Of a stretch of DNA of 64,000 nt, positions 26,414 to 36,668 are shown in pieces (the first letter of the stretch is position 1; each line of letters begins with the position of its first letter). Source of the DNA: an uncultured delta proteobacterium (GTDB lineage Bacteria > Desulfobacterota > Binatia > UBA9968). The notes beneath the pieces were generated by a model. The model saw only the letters and a program-made list of their open reading frames with translations. It searched no databases and was not told where the DNA came from. The translations under genes and the position numbers were made by a program. The stretch covers positions 1-64,000 of the forward strand of contig CAVSHR010000003.1 of NCBI GenBank assembly GCA_963727625.1. Reading direction: 5' to 3'.

Positions 26414-28156
26414 TTAATTACTGTCGTGTTCGTCAACCTTGTATACCCGTATAGAGTGATTGATCACCGCGATTGGGTCGCGATTGCGAAAACGCGCGTA
26501 ACGATCGGGACGATCGAGATAGAGACCCGCCAAAAAAGTCTCGCTGATCGCCACGTACGGAGGAAAATTAGCTACATCTTCGAGATAAGGTTCAGTGTGG
26601 TAGACGCTTCCCGGGAGATATACAGCTTCGATTTTATAATACGCAGGGTCAGCCGTGCCGAAATAGGCGAGCTGGATTTTATCGACTTGGTTCAGGGTCA
26701 TCCATTTTTTCAAGGCCTTCAGGTCCTGGCCCCAGTCAAGACTGGAATCGACTAGATACAAGTGACCTTTCGACGGACCTCCGACAAGTTCATTGAAGTA
26801 AGCAAGATAATTCGGGTAGGCCCAGAGCGTAGATCCGCAGAGCCAAACCCCTAAGAGTAACATAACCGTTCTAGTCGTACGCAGACCCGACCTCCACATT
26901 GCGCTGACTGTGCCGCCGAGCCAAACGAATAGAAACGGGTAGATTGGCATGATATGACGCCAACCCACGTTCAAGCGTGACCACACGGCAAATAGAAAAA
27001 AGAGTAGCGCCGGAGCTAAGAGGAAAAAAGCTTCGCTTCCTTTGGGTCGATGGAAAATTGTGTAGATTACCGCCGCTACGATCAGCAACAAGGTCGGCAC
27101 CGGAGTTTTCACCAGGAAAGCCACCGGGAAATACAGCCAAAAACCGGTCTGGGAGATATCTCCGAGAAGATAGCTGGTTCTTTCCATATTGAGGTAAACA
27201 TCCGCTAAGCCATAGACGAGAGCTTCGGGGAGCAGGTAATAATCCCGGCAGAGTTGAATAAGCCGGCTCAACCAGGAATTGTCAGGACTCAAGTTGGCGA
27301 CAGGGAGCTCGCCTCGTTGATACGGGATCGCGTCAAAACGAAACTGGTACGCGGCCCAAATTGCCAGGTATCCCAGCAAGACCGAGAATAGCAAAATTGT
27401 GCCCACCAGAGCTGCCTTGCGCCAGCGATTGATGATCACTTGGGGCGTGGTGATCGGTGAATGCAACGCTTCCGGATGAAATATTTTAGCCGCTGCCAGA
27501 ACCAGCCAAATTGGAAGAATCGTAACGAAAGAAAACTTGGTCACGGCCGCAACCGCAAACAACAGGGCGGTTGCCATTAAGTTAAACCATGTCAGTTGCT
27601 TCAAACTTCGCCAGAAGAAGAATGTGGCAGCGAAGAAAACCAGCGCAAACGGAACATCGGTTTGAACGATTGATGAATGGGCGATGATGTTGGGATCAAA
27701 GCAAAACAGCAACAAAGAGACCACTGCGGCTTCAGTCCCGTACAGCTCCCAGGTCCAGCGACCGACGCACAGCGCAAGCACTGCCGCCAGTAGCACCATG
27801 ACCAGGCGAGCATAAAAGAATAAAGTTTCGGCATCGTTATCGGCAAAGACAAAACGATGGGCTAGCACCCAGCCGTAATTCTTATCGCGTTGGACGATGT
27901 AGCGCTCCCCGGGTGTTATTCCGGAAGTATTGAGGTCTAACGCCAGCAGGGGTGCCGCCGCAAGCATTTTGACCAGAGGCGGATGCTCAGGATTGACTCT
28001 GTAGTCGCCCCATTTGAGGTAAGAATAGCCGGCGAAAAGGTGGACAGTCTCGTCGTAGGTCGGCGATTTATGCGCCACGCTGCCAAGGCTCAACGCAATA
28101 AAGATCAGCGGTAAGACAAAATAGACAACGTGTTTGGCGCGGCGGGAAATTTCCAT
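26414..28156 (-). CDS. GT-C glycosyltransferase (ArnT/PMT_2, GT39-like)
   Basis: 'SPTYDE..H', 'EHPPL.K', 'HSSIVQTD', 'DSSLDWGQDL'; multi-TM. Confidence 0.85.
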   Translation of the reverse strand: MEISRRAKHVVYFVLPLIFIALSLGSVAHKSPTYDETVHLFAGYSYLKWGDYRVNPEHPPLVKMLAAAPLLALDLNTSGITPGERYIVQRDKNYGWVLAHRFVFADNDAETLFFYARLVMVLLAAVLALCVGRWTWELYGTEAAVVSLLLFCFDPNIIAHSSIVQTDVPFALVFFAATFFFWRSLKQLTWFNLMATALLFAVAAVTKFSFVTILPIWLVLAAAKIFHPEALHSPITTPQVIINRWRKAALVGTILLFSVLLGYLAIWAAYQFRFDAIPYQRGELPVANLSPDNSWLSRLIQLCRDYYLLPEALVYGLADVYLNMERTSYLLGDISQTGFWLYFPVAFLVKTPVPTLLLIVAAVIYTIFHRPKGSEAFFLLAPALLFFLFAVWSRLNVGWRHIMPIYPFLFVWLGGTVSAMWRSGLRTTRTVMLLLGVWLCGSTLWAYPNYLAYFNELVGGPSKGHLYLVDSSLDWGQDLKALKKWMTLNQVDKIQLAYFGTADPAYYKIEAVYLPGSVYHTEPYLEDVANFPPYVAISETFLAGLYLDRPDRYARFRNRDPIAVINHSIRVYKVDEHDSN

Positions 28157-28182
28157 ACGCAGGAGGATCTCTGCCGCCGGAC

Positions 28183-30606
28183 TTATTCTTGCTCAACAGC
28201 CTTCGGCTGATGCGAGAGAATTGCCTGCACATCTTGAGCATGGCGCTGGTGCCGAACATAAACTAGAGCGAGCGATATGGCCGTCAATACGAGTAGCGAG
28301 ACTAGCGAAATAGCCATGCCAATCCTGAACGATAAGGGATCATATCTGAATTCGACCCTATGGGATCCCGGCGCTAGCTGGACGCCGCGAAAAAAGTGAT
28401 TTGCGCGAAGAATTTTGCCTTCTCGCCCATCGATAAAGACTCTCCATCCAGGATAATAGGAGTCGGTGAGCACGAGAATTCCCGAGCCGGCCAGCGTGCT
28501 TTCTATGACGACATCGCTATTTGCATAGTGAACAATTTTCGTTTCGGCGGCAGACGCCTTGTTGGCCTCGATGGTGATCGATTCATCGACCAAGACCGCG
28601 TGGCGCGGATCAAATTTCACGCTGGATAATAATCTCAGCGTCTTGGCGACCTGCGGCTCATATACCGCTTGCGAGACGACGTATACCCGCGGCACCGGAT
28701 TTTCGATCTCATAAAGCCAAGAAAAGTGTTTCGGAAATTGCTTGACTAGCCGCATCCCTGGGAGATCGAGAGGCTGGAAGGCGATCACATAGCGAATGTT
28801 GAGCGCGCGCAAGAAAGGCACGCGTTTTTCAGGCGGCAAAAGATTGGCAAAAGCGAGGAAGTCATTATAGGGCTGACGGGTCAGCGCATCGATCTCCTGA
28901 AAGTATTCAAAACCGTATAAGATGCCGGCGTTAGGGAGTAAATTTTCAAACGACAAGGCGGCAGCTTTTGGATAGGACGGCCAGCCCATAACCGTCAGCG
29001 TGCTCGGATGCAAGTTTTTACCGGCCGGATAGTAAAAGAGGCGGCCGTTTTCTCTCGCGGCATCCGGCAATACCCGGTCGCTCTTGGTCACGATCGCGGG
29101 ATCGAGCAAAAACTGCAGCGGTTTATGCGCCGTACCGAGATCGAAGAGCACGATTAAGATCAGGAAGGCATGTTGAAGGCCTGCTCTCAGAAATGCTTTT
29201 GACGCGCAAAAATAAACCAGCAACAGAGCGACGGTAATACCGATCTGCCGCTCCAAGGTGACAAAGATAGACGCCACGGTTGTCGCGCCGGTGCCGTTTG
29301 CCGCCTGGCCGCTCGACAAGTGAATTAATAAAGCCGACAGCCGCTCGGTATGCAGACGGGAGTCTATATAAACGCCAACCAACCCGATGAGTAGAGAAAG
29401 GAGCATGATAACCGGGAATTTCTGCGATGAATCTCTTGAGTGGTGAAGCGCAATCAAGCCCTGCACAACTACGTAGAAGAGCAAAACGAATGTAATAAAG
29501 AAGAATTTCTCGGGAAATCTTATCGCTCCAAACAGGGGAACTTGCTCGAACAGAAAACCATAGATGGGCGTAAAAGTTCCGAAAGCCACAACTAAGGAAC
29601 CGAACAACAAAGCACCGACCACGGCGCGTTCTTTCCAGGACGAAAAGTATCCCCATGCGCAAATTGCCAACAGTGATAACACACCGAGATAATGGCTAAG
29701 CAGGAACGGAACATCGTGCGCGAAGAAGAGGCGCACTCCGAGTGGCAGCGAGCTATCGGCCTCCTTGTCCGGAGCAATGAGACCGACAAGGCTTGTCGGA
29801 TTTAAAGACCAGTAGGATGCCTCTTGAAAGGGAATTGGCCCGTCCCGTCGGGATTGCTGTAGCAGTTCGGCAGTCGGCAGAAACTGCACCATCCCGAGGG
29901 CAGCAACGACGAGATTCGCGGCTAGCAAAGCCAGCAACAGCCGAGACCAGCGCAAATTGTGATCTTGGATGCTCAGCCGGAATCCATCGATGAGCAGCAG
30001 GCCCATGGAAAAAACATAAATTTCCGGTGATCCCGCCAGCAGCGAACAGAGCAGGACAAAGCTCAAAATCAAGAAAGATTTCCATGATTGCGCTGCAAAA
30101 AAGCGTTCCCCGGCTAGGATTATCCAAGGCAGCCATACGGCACTTTGAAAATGATTGAGCAAATTGGATAGGGAGACCGTAGTGCCGCCAAGTGCAAAAA
30201 CCAGAGCACCGATCAAGGATAGGTGTACGGGGCACCTCCAATGTCGGCAAAGATAATAGGCGCCCGAAGCGGCAATGAAAAAATGTAGAAAGAATGTCCA
30301 ACGAACCGCGTCAAAGAAAGGCAAAAGATAGAACAGCCAGCTCGGTGGGTAAAAAACCGCCGGCTGGAAGGCCGCGAACAGTGGAAAACCAGCCGCCATG
30401 TTGTGGTTCCAAAGTGCTAGTTCTCCTGCTTGAAGGCTTTTAGCTAGGGCGAATTTGATGGGATATGAATAGGTACCGAGATCACGAAAGAACGGTACTT
30501 TCCCCTCGTAGAGCATCCCGTCGCAAAACCAGGCGACCATCCCAGCCAAAATGAACAAGGCTAGGAGGTCGATCCATTGTTCTTTGGCGTTTTCTTTACG
30601 AGACAC
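28183..30606 (-). CDS. YfhO-family GT-C membrane protein
   Basis: 'RD....YP', 'LWN....G.P', 'FYPP', 'RFPEKF', C-terminal 'LTDSYYPGW...IDG...G.HRVEFRY.P'. Confidence 0.85.
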   Translation of the reverse strand: MSRKENAKEQWIDLLALFILAGMVAWFCDGMLYEGKVPFFRDLGTYSYPIKFALAKSLQAGELALWNHNMAAGFPLFAAFQPAVFYPPSWLFYLLPFFDAVRWTFFLHFFIAASGAYYLCRHWRCPVHLSLIGALVFALGGTTVSLSNLLNHFQSAVWLPWIILAGERFFAAQSWKSFLILSFVLLCSLLAGSPEIYVFSMGLLLIDGFRLSIQDHNLRWSRLLLALLAANLVVAALGMVQFLPTAELLQQSRRDGPIPFQEASYWSLNPTSLVGLIAPDKEADSSLPLGVRLFFAHDVPFLLSHYLGVLSLLAICAWGYFSSWKERAVVGALLFGSLVVAFGTFTPIYGFLFEQVPLFGAIRFPEKFFFITFVLLFYVVVQGLIALHHSRDSSQKFPVIMLLSLLIGLVGVYIDSRLHTERLSALLIHLSSGQAANGTGATTVASIFVTLERQIGITVALLLVYFCASKAFLRAGLQHAFLILIVLFDLGTAHKPLQFLLDPAIVTKSDRVLPDAARENGRLFYYPAGKNLHPSTLTVMGWPSYPKAAALSFENLLPNAGILYGFEYFQEIDALTRQPYNDFLAFANLLPPEKRVPFLRALNIRYVIAFQPLDLPGMRLVKQFPKHFSWLYEIENPVPRVYVVSQAVYEPQVAKTLRLLSSVKFDPRHAVLVDESITIEANKASAAETKIVHYANSDVVIESTLAGSGILVLTDSYYPGWRVFIDGREGKILRANHFFRGVQLAPGSHRVEFRYDPLSFRIGMAISLVSLLVLTAISLALVYVRHQRHAQDVQAILSHQPKAVEQE

Positions 30607-30732: not shown

Positions 30733-31116
30733 TTATGGACAAGAAGGACCGGCGATTTGGCCATTGCCGCTACTAAACGTCCACGTTACACTGCTACAGT
30801 TGCTATGACTGGCAGATAACTGAAACGTATTCGTACCGACGGTCGAACCTACAGAAACATTAGTCGTCGCGTTAAATCCTGCCGGGGTACCGGACGTAAG
30901 CGCACCAGATAAGTATGTGGAGTTCTGCGCGAAGTAAGACTCCTCCGCCACCGCTGCGTTTCTCAGGTCGGACTTGACCTGTGCTTCGTAGCCGCGCTTT
31001 CTATAGGCGGCAAACTGCGGAATCGCGATGGCTGCCAAGATACCAATGATGGCTACGACCACCAACAATTCGATCAACGTAAAACCGGACTCACTCTGTA
31101 ATCTCAATCTATTCAT
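30733..31116 (-). CDS. pilA: Type IVa major pilin
   Basis: Leader MNRLRLQSESG|FTLIELLVVVAIIGILAAIAIPQF; C-terminal Cys pair. Confidence 0.93.
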   Translation of the reverse strand: MNRLRLQSESGFTLIELLVVVAIIGILAAIAIPQFAAYRKRGYEAQVKSDLRNAAVAEESYFAQNSTYLSGALTSGTPAGFNATTNVSVGSTVGTNTFQLSASHSNCSSVTWTFSSGNGQIAGPSCP

Positions 31117-31296
31117 GTTTCGATCTCTTCCTTTCCCAGTTTTTGTTCTTTTTCTCGTTCTCGTCCTGATCACTAATCTATGACTTCTGACATTTCCTAA
31201 TCTTAAACTAGCCCATCTCGTCAAATTTGCTCTTTACCCTCACCCCTTTCTTTATAAAATCACACCAGGTTTTTTAAAACGTTGAAACGCCTATTG

Positions 31297-31312
31297 AGCA
31301 AAAGCAGGGCCA
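31297..31312 (-). promoter_or_regulatory. sigma54 promoter of pilA
   Basis: TGGCCCTGCTTTTGCT (GG-N10-GC). Confidence 0.75.
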
Positions 31313-31495: not shown

Positions 31496-31512
31496 GTGAC
31501 AAACTTTGTCAC
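31496..31512. promoter_or_regulatory. Perfect palindrome, candidate activator (UAS) site for pilA
   Basis: GTGACAAA-C-TTTGTCAC ~185 bp upstream of the -24 element; half-sites also near 31331 and 31424. Confidence 0.55.
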
Positions 31513-33620
31513 TGCGGTTCGTCGGGTTGCTCAGCGATTGAATCAGCTTTTGAACTGATCAAATCATACTTTTCCAGGCGGTGGCGTAGTGATCGGTAGT
31601 TGATGCCGAGAATCTCGGCGGCTCGTTTCTGCACCCCGTTGGCCCGCCTCAGAGCGCTGACCAAGATGCTTTTTTCGTGGGTTTCAAGCTCCGTGTCCAG
31701 CGACACGCCTTTGCTGAAAAAGGTCTCGGCGTGCACTGGCGCCGATGGAGCAACCGCCTCGTCGCCATTTTCCGATGCCTGGGAATTACGCACATGTTGT
31801 GGCAGATCTTCCTCGGTAAGAATATTCGTTGCGGTGACGGCCACCGCATGCTCGATGATGTTTTCCAATTCCCGGACATTTCCCGGATAGGCGTAACTCA
31901 TGAGTTGAATCAACGCAGCGCTGGAAAGTTCCTCGACCTTTTTGTCGTGGGAGTCAGCAAATTTCCGCAAGAAGTAATGCGCGAGCGCAGGTAGATCTTC
32001 TTTTCTATCGCGGAGCGGCGGCATGACCATCTGGACCACGTTCAGCCGATAAAAGAGATCTTCACGAAATCGGCCTTCCTCAAGTTCCTTACGCAAGTCT
32101 TTGTTGGTCGCGGAAATAATCCTTACATCGACTTTAACCGGTTTGCTGCCGCCTACAGGGGTGAAGCTCTTTTCTTGAAGAACTCTGAGGAGCTTCACTT
32201 GAAGGTGCAGCGGCAACTCGGCTACTTCATCCAAAAAAATAGTTCCTTGGTCGGCTTGTTTGAACAGGCCGGTGTGATCGGATACGGCGCCGGTGAAGGC
32301 GCCGCGCGCATGGCCGAAGAGCTCGCTTTCGATCAGGGTTTCCGGAATCGCTCCGCAATTGACGGCGACAAAGGGTTTATTTTCCCTGCGCCCATTGAGA
32401 TGAATGGCGCGGGCCACCAGTTCTTTGCCGGTGCCGCTCTCACCGGTGATGAGCACGTTGGTGCTGGTCGTCGCGACCTTTTGAATCAACTGATAAATTT
32501 TTTCGATTCCGCCGCTTTTCCCGATCACACCCTCGAAATGAAAATCTTCAGGCCCGTTTCCCGCTGCGCTCGGTTTGAACTCAACCTCCCGGCCGCGCCG
32601 CAGTTCTTCTTCGATGCGCACTTTCTCTTCGATTTGCTTTTGCTTGGTGATGTCTTCAAAGATCGAGACAAAACCGATCAATTCCTGATTCGCGTTATTG
32701 AGCGGCGCAACCGTGAGGCGAATTTGTTTGGGGATTCCAGAGGTCGCGCCAAACGAAAGTTCGTCGGTCACCACAACGGCCGCATCACGATGACGCCGGA
32801 AGTCATAGCCGAGTCCGGGAAATATTTGATCCAACCGTTTGCCCTTCACGCTCGCTTCATCGAGTAATGTCAAAGCCTGGGCTTGGCCGTTAAAATAAGT
32901 GATCTGTCCGTTCTGATCGGTGATCGCCACGCCGCTGCCGATCCCTTGGAGGAGCGCGTCTTTGAAAGCGTCCAAATCACGGTAGTCGTCCTGCTTTGCC
33001 CTGAGCATTTTTTCCGTTTCGCTCAGCTTGTTGGTTAGGAAACCGCTCAGCCAGGCAATCACAAAGAAACTGCCGATGCTCTGCACGATTGGGAACAGCG
33101 CTGACCGAGTAAAGACGATGCCATTTCCAGGATTCGCGAATCCCGACCAGATGAGCAACCCGGCGTAGGCCAAACCGGAGCATCCTGCGGCGAAAAACGC
33201 GCCGCGGTAAAAAAGCAAAATCGCCCCGTTCATGACGGCAAGATTGTAAAGAAATGAAAACGGGCTGGCGACATCGCCGGTTATCCAGATAATGCCGGAA
33301 ATTAGAATGACGTCAAAACAGACTTGCGCGTGAGCGAATGGACGAAGATCGGTAACTCGCGGCAAGAGTAGAGCCGAGCCAATGGAAATCGCATAGGCGA
33401 GGATTAGCGGAATAGAGAGATCGAAGAGATACCGCAGATCTCCCTCGGTCTTTAAAAAATGAAATAGTGCGGTTGCGCCCAAGAAAAAGGATACGATGAC
33501 CACGCGCAGAAGCAGTAGCCAGTGAATCTTCTCGGAGAGCTCTTTATTTTCGTCGCTCAAAGTTTCCAGCTTATCGGGGAACCAGTTAGCCGTGACGACA
33601 TTGGCTAGACTTGGAATCAC
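31509..33620 (-). CDS. PilS(TM+PAS)-PilR(AAA+/HTH) fusion; one-component membrane-bound sigma54 activator
   Basis: PilS-like 6-TM N-terminus ('WLLLLRVV', 'ITGDVASPFSFLY'), PAS ('ITDQNGQITYFN...FEDIT'), then 'GESGTGKE', 'ESELFGHARGAFTGA', 'FLDEV', 'FREDLFYRLNV', Fis-type HTH; no H-box, HATPase or REC. Confidence 0.88.
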   Translation of the reverse strand: MIPSLANVVTANWFPDKLETLSDENKELSEKIHWLLLLRVVIVSFFLGATALFHFLKTEGDLRYLFDLSIPLILAYAISIGSALLLPRVTDLRPFAHAQVCFDVILISGIIWITGDVASPFSFLYNLAVMNGAILLFYRGAFFAAGCSGLAYAGLLIWSGFANPGNGIVFTRSALFPIVQSIGSFFVIAWLSGFLTNKLSETEKMLRAKQDDYRDLDAFKDALLQGIGSGVAITDQNGQITYFNGQAQALTLLDEASVKGKRLDQIFPGLGYDFRRHRDAAVVVTDELSFGATSGIPKQIRLTVAPLNNANQELIGFVSIFEDITKQKQIEEKVRIEEELRRGREVEFKPSAAGNGPEDFHFEGVIGKSGGIEKIYQLIQKVATTSTNVLITGESGTGKELVARAIHLNGRRENKPFVAVNCGAIPETLIESELFGHARGAFTGAVSDHTGLFKQADQGTIFLDEVAELPLHLQVKLLRVLQEKSFTPVGGSKPVKVDVRIISATNKDLRKELEEGRFREDLFYRLNVVQMVMPPLRDRKEDLPALAHYFLRKFADSHDKKVEELSSAALIQLMSYAYPGNVRELENIIEHAVAVTATNILTEEDLPQHVRNSQASENGDEAVAPSAPVHAETFFSKGVSLDTELETHEKSILVSALRRANGVQKRAAEILGINYRSLRHRLEKYDLISSKADSIAEQPDEPQ

Positions 33621-34843
33621 CCGCCTACCAAGGACCCCATTTGGAATATCGGCAGATACATGGCGATGACCAAGCCGCCCAAAACCACGCCGAGGACCAC
33701 CATGATCATCGGCTCCATCATCGCGGTGAGATTGTTCACTGCGTCGTCAACCTCTTCTTCGTAGAGCTCCGCCACCTTTTTGAGCATGGTGTCGAGACCG
33801 CCGGTACTTTCCCCCACTGCGACCATTTGACAAACCAATGGCGGAAAAATTTTGCTGTCCCGCAGCGGCTCGGCAACCGTTTTTCCCTGGCTGATGCTGA
33901 CGCGGCTCTCCATGATCGCTTTTTCAACGACTTTATTACCGGCGGTCTTCCCGGTGATCGCCAGGCCGTCCAAAATCGGCACGCCCGAGCTCAGCAGAAG
34001 AGCCATGTTTTGGCAAAATCGCGCAACGGCCACCTTTCTTAACACATCTCCGATGATCGGCATGCGAAGCAGTAGGCGATCGATGTTCATGTGGCCCTGC
34101 GGCGTTTTGTAATAGTAGGAAATCGACATGAATACACCGACGCCGGCAGCGATTAAGACCCACCAGTAGGCGACGAACCAGTTGCTAATATTGATGCAAA
34201 TTTGCGTCGGCAGAGGAAGCGCCTGGCCCATACTGCCATACAGTTCCGCAAACACCGGGATGACGAAGATCATCAAGACCGCGACGACGATCACGGCTAC
34301 GCCGACGATGGCGCAGGGGTAGATCATGGCCCCTTTGACTTTTTTCTTGAGCCGGTTGGCTTTTTCGATGAACAAAGCAATCCGGTTGAGGATCGTATTT
34401 AAAATACCGCCGGCTTCACCGGCTTCGACCATGTTCACATAAAGATCGTCGAAGATCTTCGGATGTTTTCGCAGCGCGTCCGCGAAGGTAGAGCCGCCCT
34501 CGACGTCGGATTTAATCGTGTTAAGTGTTTTGCAAAGAAGCTTACTTTCAGACTGTTGCGCCAAAATATCTAAACACTGCACGATCGGCAGACCGGCATC
34601 GATCATGGTGGCCAACTGACGAGTGGCGAGCGACAAATCTTTCGTCGTGACTTTGTCGCCGAACCCGGGTATCGAGATCTCTCTTTCTAGCCCTTTACCT
34701 TTTTCCCGAACCCGGCTTGGAATCGGGCGAATTCTCTGCTCGCGTAGCCGCGCCAGGGCAGCGTCCAAATTCGGCGCTTCGAGATTATCGCCCTTGACCA
34801 ACCTGCCCTGAGCGGTTCTGCCTTCCCACACAAATGTCGTCAT
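33617..34843 (-). CDS. pilC: Type IV pilus platform protein
   Basis: 'RQLATMIDAGLP', 'AGEAGG.L', 'GAMIYP', 'MEP...MYLPIF'. Confidence 0.95.
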   Translation of the reverse strand: MTTFVWEGRTAQGRLVKGDNLEAPNLDAALARLREQRIRPIPSRVREKGKGLEREISIPGFGDKVTTKDLSLATRQLATMIDAGLPIVQCLDILAQQSESKLLCKTLNTIKSDVEGGSTFADALRKHPKIFDDLYVNMVEAGEAGGILNTILNRIALFIEKANRLKKKVKGAMIYPCAIVGVAVIVVAVLMIFVIPVFAELYGSMGQALPLPTQICINISNWFVAYWWVLIAAGVGVFMSISYYYKTPQGHMNIDRLLLRMPIIGDVLRKVAVARFCQNMALLLSSGVPILDGLAITGKTAGNKVVEKAIMESRVSISQGKTVAEPLRDSKIFPPLVCQMVAVGESTGGLDTMLKKVAELYEEEVDDAVNNLTAMMEPMIMVVLGVVLGGLVIAMYLPIFQMGSLVGG

Positions 34844-34940
34844 AATTTCTTTCGTCCCGATAATTCGCTTGTTCGGCTACCTCATCCCCGACTGCTCCAG
34901 TCAATTTTACCCGTTGACATTGGCGAATCTGCCAACGCGA

Positions 34941-36668
34941 TCAAAATCCCAAAGAAAACACCGAGCCAAAACCCTTGTCGGTATCGGTTACTCGGATAGT
35001 TTCGTCGACGGTCGTTAATCCCTGGCGAACTTTATGTAGCGCGCTCATTCGCAACGTGCTCATGCCAAGCTTGACGGCTTCGCGTTTGAGCTCCATCGCA
35101 GAAGCTCTCTTCAGGATCATCTCGCGGATTGGCTCGTGCATCACCATGACTTCATAGATTGCCAAACGGCCGCGATAGCCGGTGTTGTTGCAATTGTTGC
35201 AACCCCGGCCGTGAAAGGTCGGAAATCCTGAGCTGATTTCCGCGGAATCCACGCCTAGGTTAAGTAAAACCTCGGCCTTGACTTCAATCGGTTCCTTACA
35301 ATGGTCGCAGATTTTGCGCACCAGTCGTTGAGCGAGAATCAAATTGATCGACGAAGTCAATAAAAACGTTTCGACACCCATGTTGAGCAGGCGGTCCACG
35401 GTCGCCGGACAGTCGTTGGTATGGAGGGTGCTGAGAACAAGATGGCCTGTCAAGGCCGCTTTGATGGCAATCTGAGCGGTTTCTAAATCGCGGACCTCGC
35501 CGACCATGATAATATCGGGATCTTGGCGCAGGAACGAGCGCAGACATGCGGCAAAATCGAGACCGATCTGCTCTTTGACTTGGACTTGATTGATGCCGAC
35601 CAAATTATATTCAACAGGATCTTCGGCCGTGGAAATATTCACATCCGGTTTGTTGAGTTCCGAAAGCGCGGAATAAAGCGTGGTCGATTTGCCGCTCCCG
35701 GTCGGACCGGTGATGAGAATCATGCCGTAGGGCTTATGAATGGCTTCTTGAAAGTCTTTCAAGTTTTGCGGATCGAAGCCAAGTTTAGCCATATCCAATT
35801 GTAAATTGGACTTATCGAGCAACCGCATCACGACCTTTTCGCCAAACAGCGTCGGCAATATGGAGACGCGAATATCCAGCTCGCCACCCATGCCCATTTT
35901 AAGCTTGATGCGGCCATCCTGGGTGAGCCGCCGTTCGGCGATGTCCAATCCGGCCATCACTTTGAGCCGGGAGACCAGCGCGTTTTTGAGCCGCAACGGC
36001 GGACTCATGATTTCCTGCAACACCCCGTCGATGCGAAAACGCACTCGAAAGATTTTTTCGTAGGGCTCGATATGAATATCGCTGCAGCCCCGCTTGGCTG
36101 CGTCGGCGAGGATGGCGTTGACCAGCGTCACCACCGGCGCATCCATGGTGGCTTGCTGCAGTTCCTGGAGGTTGACGTCGTCGCTTTCTTGGACGACCTC
36201 CATTTCACCGGCACCGAACTTTTTTAAGACATCGTCGTAGCTAACGCCGCCGAAGCGATGCTCAAGTGTCTTCTTGATGTTCGACGGCGTAGCCAAGACC
36301 ACTCGCACGCCGTAACCGGTAACGAATTTGACTTCGTTGATGGCCACCAGATCCGTCGGGTCGGACATCGCGACTGTTACAGTCGAGCCCGTGAGTTTGT
36401 ACGGTACGAGTTGATGTTTTTGGACGATCTGTGGCGGGACCAGGCTAAAAACGGCGTCTTCAATGTCGCCTGGGACTAGTTCGACTGCTTCGATGCCAAA
36501 TTGGTTACCGAGAAACTGGGTAAGTTTTTCTTCGTTTGTGAAGCCAAGTTTAACGATTTCTTTGGCGACGCTGGAGCCGTTTTCTCGCTCGCATTTTTGC
36601 GCTTCAGCGAGCTGTTCACGCGAAACTAGCCCGCCCTTTACCAAAAGTTCCGCAAAACGTGGTTCCAT
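34941..36668 (-). CDS. pilB: Type IV pilus extension ATPase
   Basis: 'SDIHIEP', 'GPTGSGKSTT', 'EDPVE', 'LRQDPDIIMVGEVRD', two CxxC. Confidence 0.95.
   Translation of the reverse strand: MEPRFAELLVKGGLVSREQLAEAQKCERENGSSVAKEIVKLGFTNEEKLTQFLGNQFGIEAVELVPGDIEDAVFSLVPPQIVQKHQLVPYKLTGSTVTVAMSDPTDLVAINEVKFVTGYGVRVVLATPSNIKKTLEHRFGGVSYDDVLKKFGAGEMEVVQESDDVNLQELQQATMDAPVVTLVNAILADAAKRGCSDIHIEPYEKIFRVRFRIDGVLQEIMSPPLRLKNALVSRLKVMAGLDIAERRLTQDGRIKLKMGMGGELDIRVSILPTLFGEKVVMRLLDKSNLQLDMAKLGFDPQNLKDFQEAIHKPYGMILITGPTGSGKSTTLYSALSELNKPDVNISTAEDPVEYNLVGINQVQVKEQIGLDFAACLRSFLRQDPDIIMVGEVRDLETAQIAIKAALTGHLVLSTLHTNDCPATVDRLLNMGVETFLLTSSINLILAQRLVRKICDHCKEPIEVKAEVLLNLGVDSAEISSGFPTFHGRGCNNCNNTGYRGRLAIYEVMVMHEPIREMILKRASAMELKREAVKLGMSTLRMSALHKVRQGLTTVDETIRVTDTDKGFGSVFSLGF

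Follow-up and report, generated by a model that had tools for sequence, protein, structure and literature searches.

A fused pilS–pilR gene between pilC and pilA in uncultured Binatia: a candidate phosphorylation-free, membrane-bound sigma-54 activator

How is a pilin gene controlled when a single gene stands where the sensor kinase gene pilS and the response regulator gene pilR normally lie? The question is raised by a 64,000-nucleotide stretch of DNA (positions 1 to 64,000, forward strand, of contig CAVSHR010000003.1 in assembly GCA_963727625.1; hereafter the window) from an uncultured delta proteobacterium of the Binatia, in which one gene for a 703-residue protein separates pilC from pilA. 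The original prediction, made from the DNA letters, took this gene for PilS and PilR collapsed into a kinase-less, membrane-tethered activator of sigma-54 promoters. Here, we find that it joins the membrane sensor and PAS domain of a PilS to the AAA+ and DNA-binding domains of a PilR, and that this layout is conserved, in the same position, in related genomes. There is good support for an evolutionary collapse of PilS–PilR into a membrane-bound sigma-54 activator free of phosphorylation. We put at roughly 70% the fuller reading that the protein is a functional and conserved one-component regulator of the pilin gene, descended from a pilS–pilR pair, whose input travels by conformation and is most likely pilin.

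Domain layout and the junction

The uninterrupted reading frame at 31509–33620 is present as predicted, with the correction that it lies on the minus strand, as do pilB, pilC and the pilin gene around it and, apart from the strandless palindrome, the window features described below. Its first codon, a GTG at 33620, shares bases with the pilC stop codon. Because most orthologue alignments open only at residues 14–21, translation may in truth begin as many as some 20 codons further downstream. Pfam assigns residues 23–204 (33009–33554) to the PilS membrane sensor 6TM_PilS (PF25323), with an E-value of 1e-16, a score of 61.6 bits (cut-off 27) and coverage of model positions 2–187 of 189; this region carries the signature residues R39, Q99, D103, T114, G115 and S119. 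A PAS domain follows at residues 220–328 (32637–32963), recognized both by Pfam and in the structural model. The sigma-54 AAA+ domain and its lid occupy residues 365–618 (31767–32528), matched by Sigma54_activat at 365–531 (E 1.8e-73) and AAA_lid_14 at 537–618, and the Fis-type DNA-binding domain HTH_8 residues 645–685 (31566–31688).

The strings named in the original prediction could all be placed. The end of the PAS region, FEDITKQKQIEEKVRIEEELRR, spans residues 321–342; the linker, put at about 20 residues, has 19 (343–361) and runs into FEGVIGKS (362–369). The AAA+ domain is intact, with Walker A GESGTGKE at 393–400, GAFTGA at 440–445, the Walker B DE at 464–465 and the arginine motifs, and is followed by the predicted helix-turn-helix. 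The proposed lack of kinase and receiver domains also stands, with no match to HisKA, HATPase_c or Response_reg at E-values up to 1 anywhere in the 703 residues; in the canonical control protein P0133, Pfam detected both HisKA and HATPase_c. In fact, only 36 residues separate the Pfam matches to PAS and AAA+, which is too short for a kinase core or a receiver. Among NCBIfam models, those of sigma-54 activators match below threshold only. The best of them, PrdR, aligns with residues 215–686 at 389 bits, far under its cut-off of 795, and the protein is therefore not a PrdR.

An AlphaFold2 model built from an alignment of 55 family members (mean predicted local distance difference test score 77.7) shows long helices at residues 23–226, a PAS fold at 230–323, a further helix at 325–344 and a low-confidence segment at 345–358, followed by the AAA+ domain and a helical DNA-binding domain. 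The count of six membrane helices comes from the Pfam model and the fold; hydropathy by itself flags four strongly hydrophobic segments. The domain matches and the predicted fold thus place transmembrane segments and a DNA-binding domain in one polypeptide that is devoid of phosphorelay domains, and the six-helix PilS domain is predicted to insert the protein into the inner membrane.

At the junction (32538–32648), the post-PAS helix of PilS type (residues 325–344 in the model) gives way to the short low-confidence linker that ends at residue 361, and the H-box/DHp domain, the kinase ATPase domain and the receiver are all absent. Past the PAS motif F-x-D-I-T, fused proteins retain the PilS-type helix, as illustrated by DVTRVREMEEEL in the distant fusion L016 compared with DITRFKEMEEQM in PilS. 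Similarity to PilS ends about ten residues ahead of where the H-box would begin, and the linker then runs into the AAA+ start, h-h-G-x-S. A second distant fusion, L014, retains a linker of PilR type (KKRYNLENIIGKS compared with RERYHFEKIIGQS). An ancestral pair would have lost everything between the post-PAS helix of PilS and the linker of PilR ahead of the AAA+ domain, and with it the DHp domain with its H-box, the ATPase domain of the kinase and the receiver.

The linker itself is fixed in length and free in sequence. Scoring was possible for 36 close members. The Asp at the PAS end and the Gly at the AAA+ start are 44 residues apart in 33 of them and 43 apart in the other three, while the central 11–12 linker residues vary freely. 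This combination suggests a spacer under geometric constraint. In deeper lineages the same distance ranges from 16 to 42 residues. A simpler origin of the junction was considered and rejected. By BLAST, residues 321–361 align to the end of a PilR receiver with near-equal spacing, which hinted at a deletion running from "DIT" in the PAS domain to "ITKPF" in the receiver. As a general junction, "DITK/YITKPF" fails, since distant members keep the PilS-type "R.REMEE" helix past DIT and a PilR-type linker occurs in L014 only.

Conservation and descent of the fused gene

A word-indexed protein search with residues 1–360 returned 648 proteins. Among the 120 matches listed, which are 65–100% identical to the query, all 120 carry both PF25323 and PF00158 and none carries a kinase or receiver family; nine more representatives at the 50%-identity level have the identical domain layout. 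Such homologues are named "response regulator PilR" by JGI and "sigma-54 interaction domain-containing protein" by NCBI. Within the genus, a full-length match occurs in 11 of 24 relatives, and in a twelfth it is divided between two contig ends. Each 6TM_PilS match above the cut-off in these genomes coincides with the fused gene, and a separate PilS is found in none of the 24, where the original prediction had allowed for relatives that keep pilS and pilR apart around a lone fused allele. One genus orthologue comes from an unpublished genome (G005), on which alone no claim rests. In a second family of the order, a fused-type match reaching well past the AAA+ part occurs in three of five genomes, and in one of the three a contig end truncates it; none of the 11 genomes of a third family has a fused-type match.

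Species-representative genomes, scanned with an alignment of close members and hence reaching the window's own clade, yielded 49 loci, all from metagenome-assembled genomes. The two halves are contiguous and in frame in 46; of the other three loci, two are truncated at the end of a contig and the third is a weak, unrelated match. Setting the last aside, pilC lies upstream in 48/48 loci and pilB in 47/48, and pilA follows downstream in 38/48, the remaining ten stopping before the expected pilA start. Homologues of the same layout between pilC and pilA, as the original prediction had expected to find in relatives, are thus common in this clade. The junction, where it had foreseen a possible misassembly, is bridged by contigs from two other studies, one from run X2 (32425–33003, 15 differences) and one from run X4 (32448–32660, 5 differences).

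By title, the 49 records comprise 14 Candidatus Binatia, 22 Deltaproteobacteria or uncultured delta proteobacterium (including the unrelated weak match), five Syntrophobacter or Syntrophobacteraceae, one Thermodesulfobacteriota and seven with other labels, the last probably binning errors. In these seven (L032, L034, L060, L064, L072, L075 and L076), filed as Chloroflexota, Udaeobacter, Eisenbacteria, Planctomycetales, Verrucomicrobiia and Acidiferrales, the locus shows 50–93% identity in the N-terminal half, and mis-binned contigs are probably at work rather than gene transfer. So far, the family is confined to uncultured soil and sediment bacteria. Two look-alike clusters in the ESM Atlas, one of about 695 residues and mostly Binatota, the other of 677 residues and mostly Bdellovibrionota, may be a lead that the fused layout extends further.

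Two single-genome observations belong here. The genus orthologue in G021 (C4:39304–41364, locus L009) contains one in-frame TGA, which may be a sequencing error or mark a recently inactivated copy. In a sister-family genome (G031), the fused gene is accompanied by a second 6TM_PilS match in a frame of 565 residues (C324:4281–4865); this is probably a canonical PilS kinase, in which case fused gene and canonical PilS may coexist in one genome.

Across the phylum, a sample of 401 genomes contained a full-length fused match in seven, three of them in other classes. As far as the retrieved stretches extend, the distant fused loci are arranged pilB-pilT-pilC-fusion-pilA. The best non-fused matches in the phylum are proteins of 463–487 residues, and four of the five loci retrieved for them are pilB-pilT-pilC-pilS-pilR arrays, one of which includes pilA within the retrieved stretch. 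The PilS of these arrays has 570–599 residues, with H-box and kinase core, and the PilR is 53–56% identical to the C-terminal half of the fusion, compared with at most 51% for the 26 other sigma-54 activators of the window's own genome. The fused gene occupies the exact slot of pilS and pilR in other members of the phylum, and, as judged by sequence comparison and by trees, its two halves are closest to the PilS and PilR of pil loci in that phylum.

Phylogenetic analysis agrees with this descent. A maximum-likelihood tree of the AAA+ and DNA-binding domains separates 18 fusions, five PilRs and one soluble paralogue from the 26 own-genome activators (ultrafast bootstrap 80, Shimodaira–Hasegawa-like approximate likelihood ratio test, SH-aLRT, 100; in 83% of 200 bootstrap trees). 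A quick tree built from N-terminal halves unites 14 fusions, including that of the window, in a clade (SH-aLRT 95) and places the distant fusions L014, L016, P0152 and P0161 among PilS kinases. The same four group with PilRs in the C-half tree, where three changes of the "fused" label are needed, at least two of them forced by well-supported branches. The concatenated tree, in which the canonical pair L023 sits on a long branch, splits the 14 fusions from the five canonical pairs plus the other four fusions with support 100/99. Fusions form a single group in 0/200 bootstrap trees, concatenated and C-half alike, and constraining them to one lowers the log-likelihood by 9.15, which the approximately unbiased test does not reject (p 0.056). 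That the fusion arose at least twice is therefore favoured by the trees but not established. An uncollapsed PilS–PilR hybrid of about 1050 residues did not occur among the best 150 of 6911 hits.

A paralogue of 509 residues with the layout PAS-AAA+-HTH, lacking a membrane domain, is encoded in a genome of the same family (G331; L021:3998–5527) and is sister to the window clade in the quick C-half tree. Its neighbours are genes for LexA, a Y-family DNA polymerase, a spore-photoproduct-lyase-like protein and haem biosynthesis, with no pil genes nearby.

Signs of function, proposed control of pilA and competing explanations

Conservation in both halves of the protein points to a function. In the N-terminal half of 18 fusions, 38 positions (the start-codon column excluded) are at least 80% conserved, and at 30 of these 38, 70% or more of 109 canonical PilS kinases have the identical residue; the kinase set is made up of hits of 520–620 residues with an H-box plus five from the retrieved loci. 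The common positions include polar residues of the transmembrane helices, namely R39 (109/109 kinases), Q99 (107/109) and D103 (104/109), together with T114, G115 and S119; PAS residues such as G230, D235, N244 and G316 are likewise conserved, also in PilS kinases. In the output half, Walker A reads GESGTGKE in 54 of 55 aligned members, GAFTGA is exact in 49 and differs by a single substitution in six, and all members retain the Walker B DE, "REDLxYRL" and "GN[VI]RELE". The genome also contains rpoN. The fused protein is predicted to activate transcription in an ATP-dependent manner.

The DNA between the fused gene and pilA offers candidate sites for the action of such an activator. A sigma-54 promoter, TGGCCCTGCTTTTGCT, with GG at -24 and GC at -12, lies at 31297–31312, 196 bp upstream of the pilA ATG, and a palindrome, TGACAAAGTTTGTCA, which is likely the upstream activator site, lies at 31497–31511, overlapping the stop codon of the regulator gene. 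An invariant TGGC...TTGC between fusion and pilA is common to 11 aligned genus loci, as is the palindrome. Both genes are present in 37 species loci, of which 34 contain the promoter pattern TGGC-N7-TTGC, compared with 66 of 7400 shuffles. The palindrome fits a strict pattern in 27 of the 37, the other ten carrying degenerate versions in the same place, and is upstream of the promoter by 165–210 bp. The same palindrome accompanies the distant fused locus L014, and the canonical locus L025 has a degenerate one after the pilR stop, followed by TGGCACATCGATTGC; for these two reasons the DNA target seems to be inherited from PilR. In the 6.6-Mb genome the exact palindrome occurs once, and nothing points to a wider regulon, since sites with one mismatch are close to the control count. 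The pilA leader between promoter and gene (31117–31296, about 180 nt) contains two blocks conserved across genus loci, AACGTTTTAA directly after the promoter and AAGGAGGTG 60–110 nt ahead of the real ribosome-binding site; Rfam gave no match to the leader at E-values up to 1.

How might such a protein work? PilS is described as having six transmembrane segments and contacting PilA directly, and deletion of pilA as leaving PilR hyperactive (PMC6058289, citing Kilmury and Burrows 2016). By analogy, the transmembrane domain of the fused protein would read pilin subunits in the membrane, and the signal would pass through PAS and the post-PAS helix to the assembly of the AAA+ domain, with conformation in place of phosphotransfer. 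The helix-turn-helix domain probably binds the palindrome at its own gene's stop codon, where assembly of the AAA+ ring would be permitted or blocked by the signal. Once formed, the ring would act on the promoter, some 200 bp further downstream, by remodelling the sigma-54 RNA polymerase there, and pilA would be transcribed. If control runs in the same direction as in PilS–PilR, pilin-bound protein would be held off and depletion of pilin would activate it. Gating of the AAA+ activator by pilin is plausible on this analogy, and the one line of support that the present analysis brings to it is the retention of the PilS membrane signature residues.

A bolder version can be entertained tentatively, as somewhat less probable than an even chance: an AAA+ enhancer-binding protein with a polytopic membrane domain, which assembles at the membrane and fires sigma-54 RNA polymerase there, switched directly by the pilin pool with no phosphate chemistry, invented more than once by deletion of the phosphorelay core, its locus kept at the membrane by co-translational insertion. 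The last element is speculation; it is prompted by a regulator gene that ends inside its own putative site and by the membrane-protein genes that flank it, and such insertion could hold the locus near the membrane and ease the search problem.

Several observations weigh against our preferred reading. A hexameric AAA+ ring with 36 transmembrane helices that also reaches DNA would be unusual, and the full-length protein is no more than the presumed active form. Because the model is of low confidence at residues 345–358, the fold gives no clear indication of rigid mechanical coupling. A complex prediction of the transmembrane domain (residues 1–215) with the N-terminal helix of PilA (residues 12–70) scored 0.00 in both runs, and, as its controls were not folded, is no evidence either way. 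The palindrome is a putative binding site known from sequence, and its one-mismatch versions are no commoner than control in the 6.6-Mb genome (four further sites, compared with three for the reversed control). Among the listed sequencing runs, no RNA run contained the stretch, and the best DNA run contained 0.21 of the sampled words. Furthermore, no 6TM_PilS domain was found in 11 of the 24 genus genomes (completeness 60–93%, several above 90%), and the 98% complete genus genome G007 has a sub-threshold match only, so that the system is either dispensable or often unassembled.

The explanation that best survives next to pilin-responsive control keeps the same fused activator, with the six-helix domain a mere membrane or polar anchor and the PAS domain sensing a signal other than pilin, such as a ligand, redox state or a partner protein. 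The transmembrane domain of PilS reportedly has a part in polar targeting (Ethier and Boyd 2000, as cited in PMC6058289). One-component PAS-AAA+-HTH activators are common; in Desulfovibrio vulgaris, one-component proteins make up 15 of 37 enhancer-binding proteins, six of these 15 with PAS (PMC4641369). The paralogue that lacks transmembrane segments, sister to the window clade and away from pil genes, fits such a role, and so does the conservation of G230, D235, N244 and G316. However, these PAS residues are equally conserved in the pilin-sensing PilS kinases and thus give a PAS-borne signal no advantage, and the polar membrane residues R39, Q99, D103 and S119 show the same strict conservation as in canonical PilS, which would be needless for an anchor. 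We consider this explanation unlikely.

A latent membrane precursor, from which regulated proteolysis in the linker frees a soluble AAA+-HTH or PAS-AAA+-HTH activator of pilA, appears more doubtful still. Proteolytic release is known for some membrane-bound transcription factors; TcpP is said to be cleaved by YaeL, and a staphylococcal factor to be regulated by FtsH (both as cited in PMC10269533). The linker segment 345–358, which has many Pro, Gly and Ala residues and is modelled with low confidence, could accommodate a cut, and the soluble paralogue demonstrates that the module exists in a form free of the membrane. Yet the linker of the close clade, fixed at 43–44 residues in the members scored and free in its central 11–12, looks more like a spacer than like a specific cleavage site, and no protease gene is conserved in the locus.

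A decaying pilS–pilR remnant with no role has a precedent in Rsp of Neisseria gonorrhoeae, a fusion of PilS and PilR homologues apparently without effect on pilE transcription (PMC6528607, citing Carrick 2000), and the in-frame TGA of the G021 orthologue points the same way. It is contradicted by the conservation data, namely an open frame with intact motifs in 55/55 aligned members at 39–92% identity to the window protein, synteny in 46 species-level genomes, the conserved promoter and palindrome and the presence of rpoN, which leaves it highly improbable. An assembly artefact, in which a misjoin or collapsed deletion made the junction, deserves a thought, the assembly being of metagenome type with 15 contigs and a contamination of 6.3%, but is contradicted by the identical junction in independent assemblies and by the bridging contigs from X2 and X4, and we give it next to no credence.

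Neighbouring genes, known regulators and significance

Around the fused gene, the same-strand order is pyruvate phosphate dikinase, pilB, pilC, fusion, type IVa pilin, a YfhO-like protein and a PMT_2-like membrane protein. The gene for the T2SSF platform protein PilC (33617–34843) is directly upstream, preceded by that for the T2SSE extension ATPase PilB (34941–36668). In the window clade, pilB is followed directly by pilC (33617–36668); a pilT-like ATPase gene stands between them in the distant fused loci L014–L016 and in the canonical loci L022, L024 and L025. Downstream, pilA (30733–31116, likely ATG at 31116) encodes a type IVa major pilin of 127 residues with an N_methyl match, the leader peptide MNRLRLQSESG and a mature N-terminus, FTLIELL..., of the usual conserved type with E5 and P22. 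The pilin beside the distant fused regulator of L014 (L014:3517–3753, genome G066) has only 78 residues, essentially the N-terminal helix alone, and we take it to resemble the short Geobacter-type pilins.

Directly after pilA, the window encodes an 807-residue YfhO-like protein and a 580-residue PMT_2-type (GT-C-like) protein (26414–30606), and the YfhO-like gene keeps its position after pilA in most related loci. Both may be enzymes of pilin glycosylation, because the C-terminal half of the pilin is rich in Ser and Thr.

Compared with PilS–PilR, as in Pseudomonas aeruginosa and the canonical loci L022, L024, L025 and L026, the fused system has (I) the six-helix PilS domain with its signature residues, the PAS domain and the post-PAS helix motif, (II) the PilR-type AAA+ and HTH_8 output, and (III) the pilC–pilA slot, the sigma-54 promoter ahead of pilA and, as in canonical L025, a similar palindrome after the regulator stop. 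In contrast, it lacks the DHp/H-box, the kinase ATPase domain and the receiver, so that control by phosphotransfer and phosphatase is impossible, and its activator is covalently tied to the membrane.

A chimera of PilS and PilR has been met before, in a genus whose pathogenic members presumably lack a functional rpoN. Rsp of Neisseria gonorrhoeae is described as such a chimera in PMC6528607 and PMC10269533, and we compared it by description. Rsp sits after parC, away from the pilin gene, whereas the fused gene studied here adjoins a sigma-54 pilA promoter, and Rsp is treated as a single-species remnant, in contrast to the conserved and intact fused family. Accounts of its function differ, with no apparent role in pilE transcription in PMC6528607 and repression of pilA in PMC10269533. 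The suggestion in the original prediction that this architecture was undescribed for pilus regulation thus holds in part: a PilS/PilR chimera as such is already published, and the conserved, apparently functional family seems undescribed. We found no description of a conserved environmental fused family in the literature, most subscription journals lying outside the search.

Two further classes of regulator share features with the fused protein. Like the one-component PAS-AAA+-HTH enhancer-binding proteins of Desulfovibrio vulgaris (PMC4641369) and those behind the PrdR, TyrR and NifA-type NCBIfam models, it fuses a sensor to AAA+ and HTH domains and dispenses with phosphorylation. Those proteins are soluble, whereas the fusion has a polytopic membrane domain. 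ToxR, TcpP and CadC act on sigma-70 promoters. They combine sensing and DNA binding in one membrane protein and reach DNA from the membrane (PMC10269533), as the fused protein would, but are not AAA+ proteins; the fusion has six transmembrane helices and would need the ATP-driven oligomer that sigma-54 requires. In the same survey, about 56% of transmembrane transcription regulators are single-pass, and its main text makes no mention of NtrC-type or sigma-54 members.

PilS–PilR is the textbook case of a pilin that feeds back on its own gene through a kinase. The fused family is in effect a natural experiment, in which kinase, phosphatase and receiver have been removed and sensor and output kept. 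If our reading is true, the PilS membrane/PAS module controls AAA+ assembly directly, which would provide a simple system in which to ask what the membrane domain of PilS reads, and the family would be a clear case of a sigma-54 activator at work while embedded in the membrane. It may also show a two-component system repeatedly collapsing into a one-component one.

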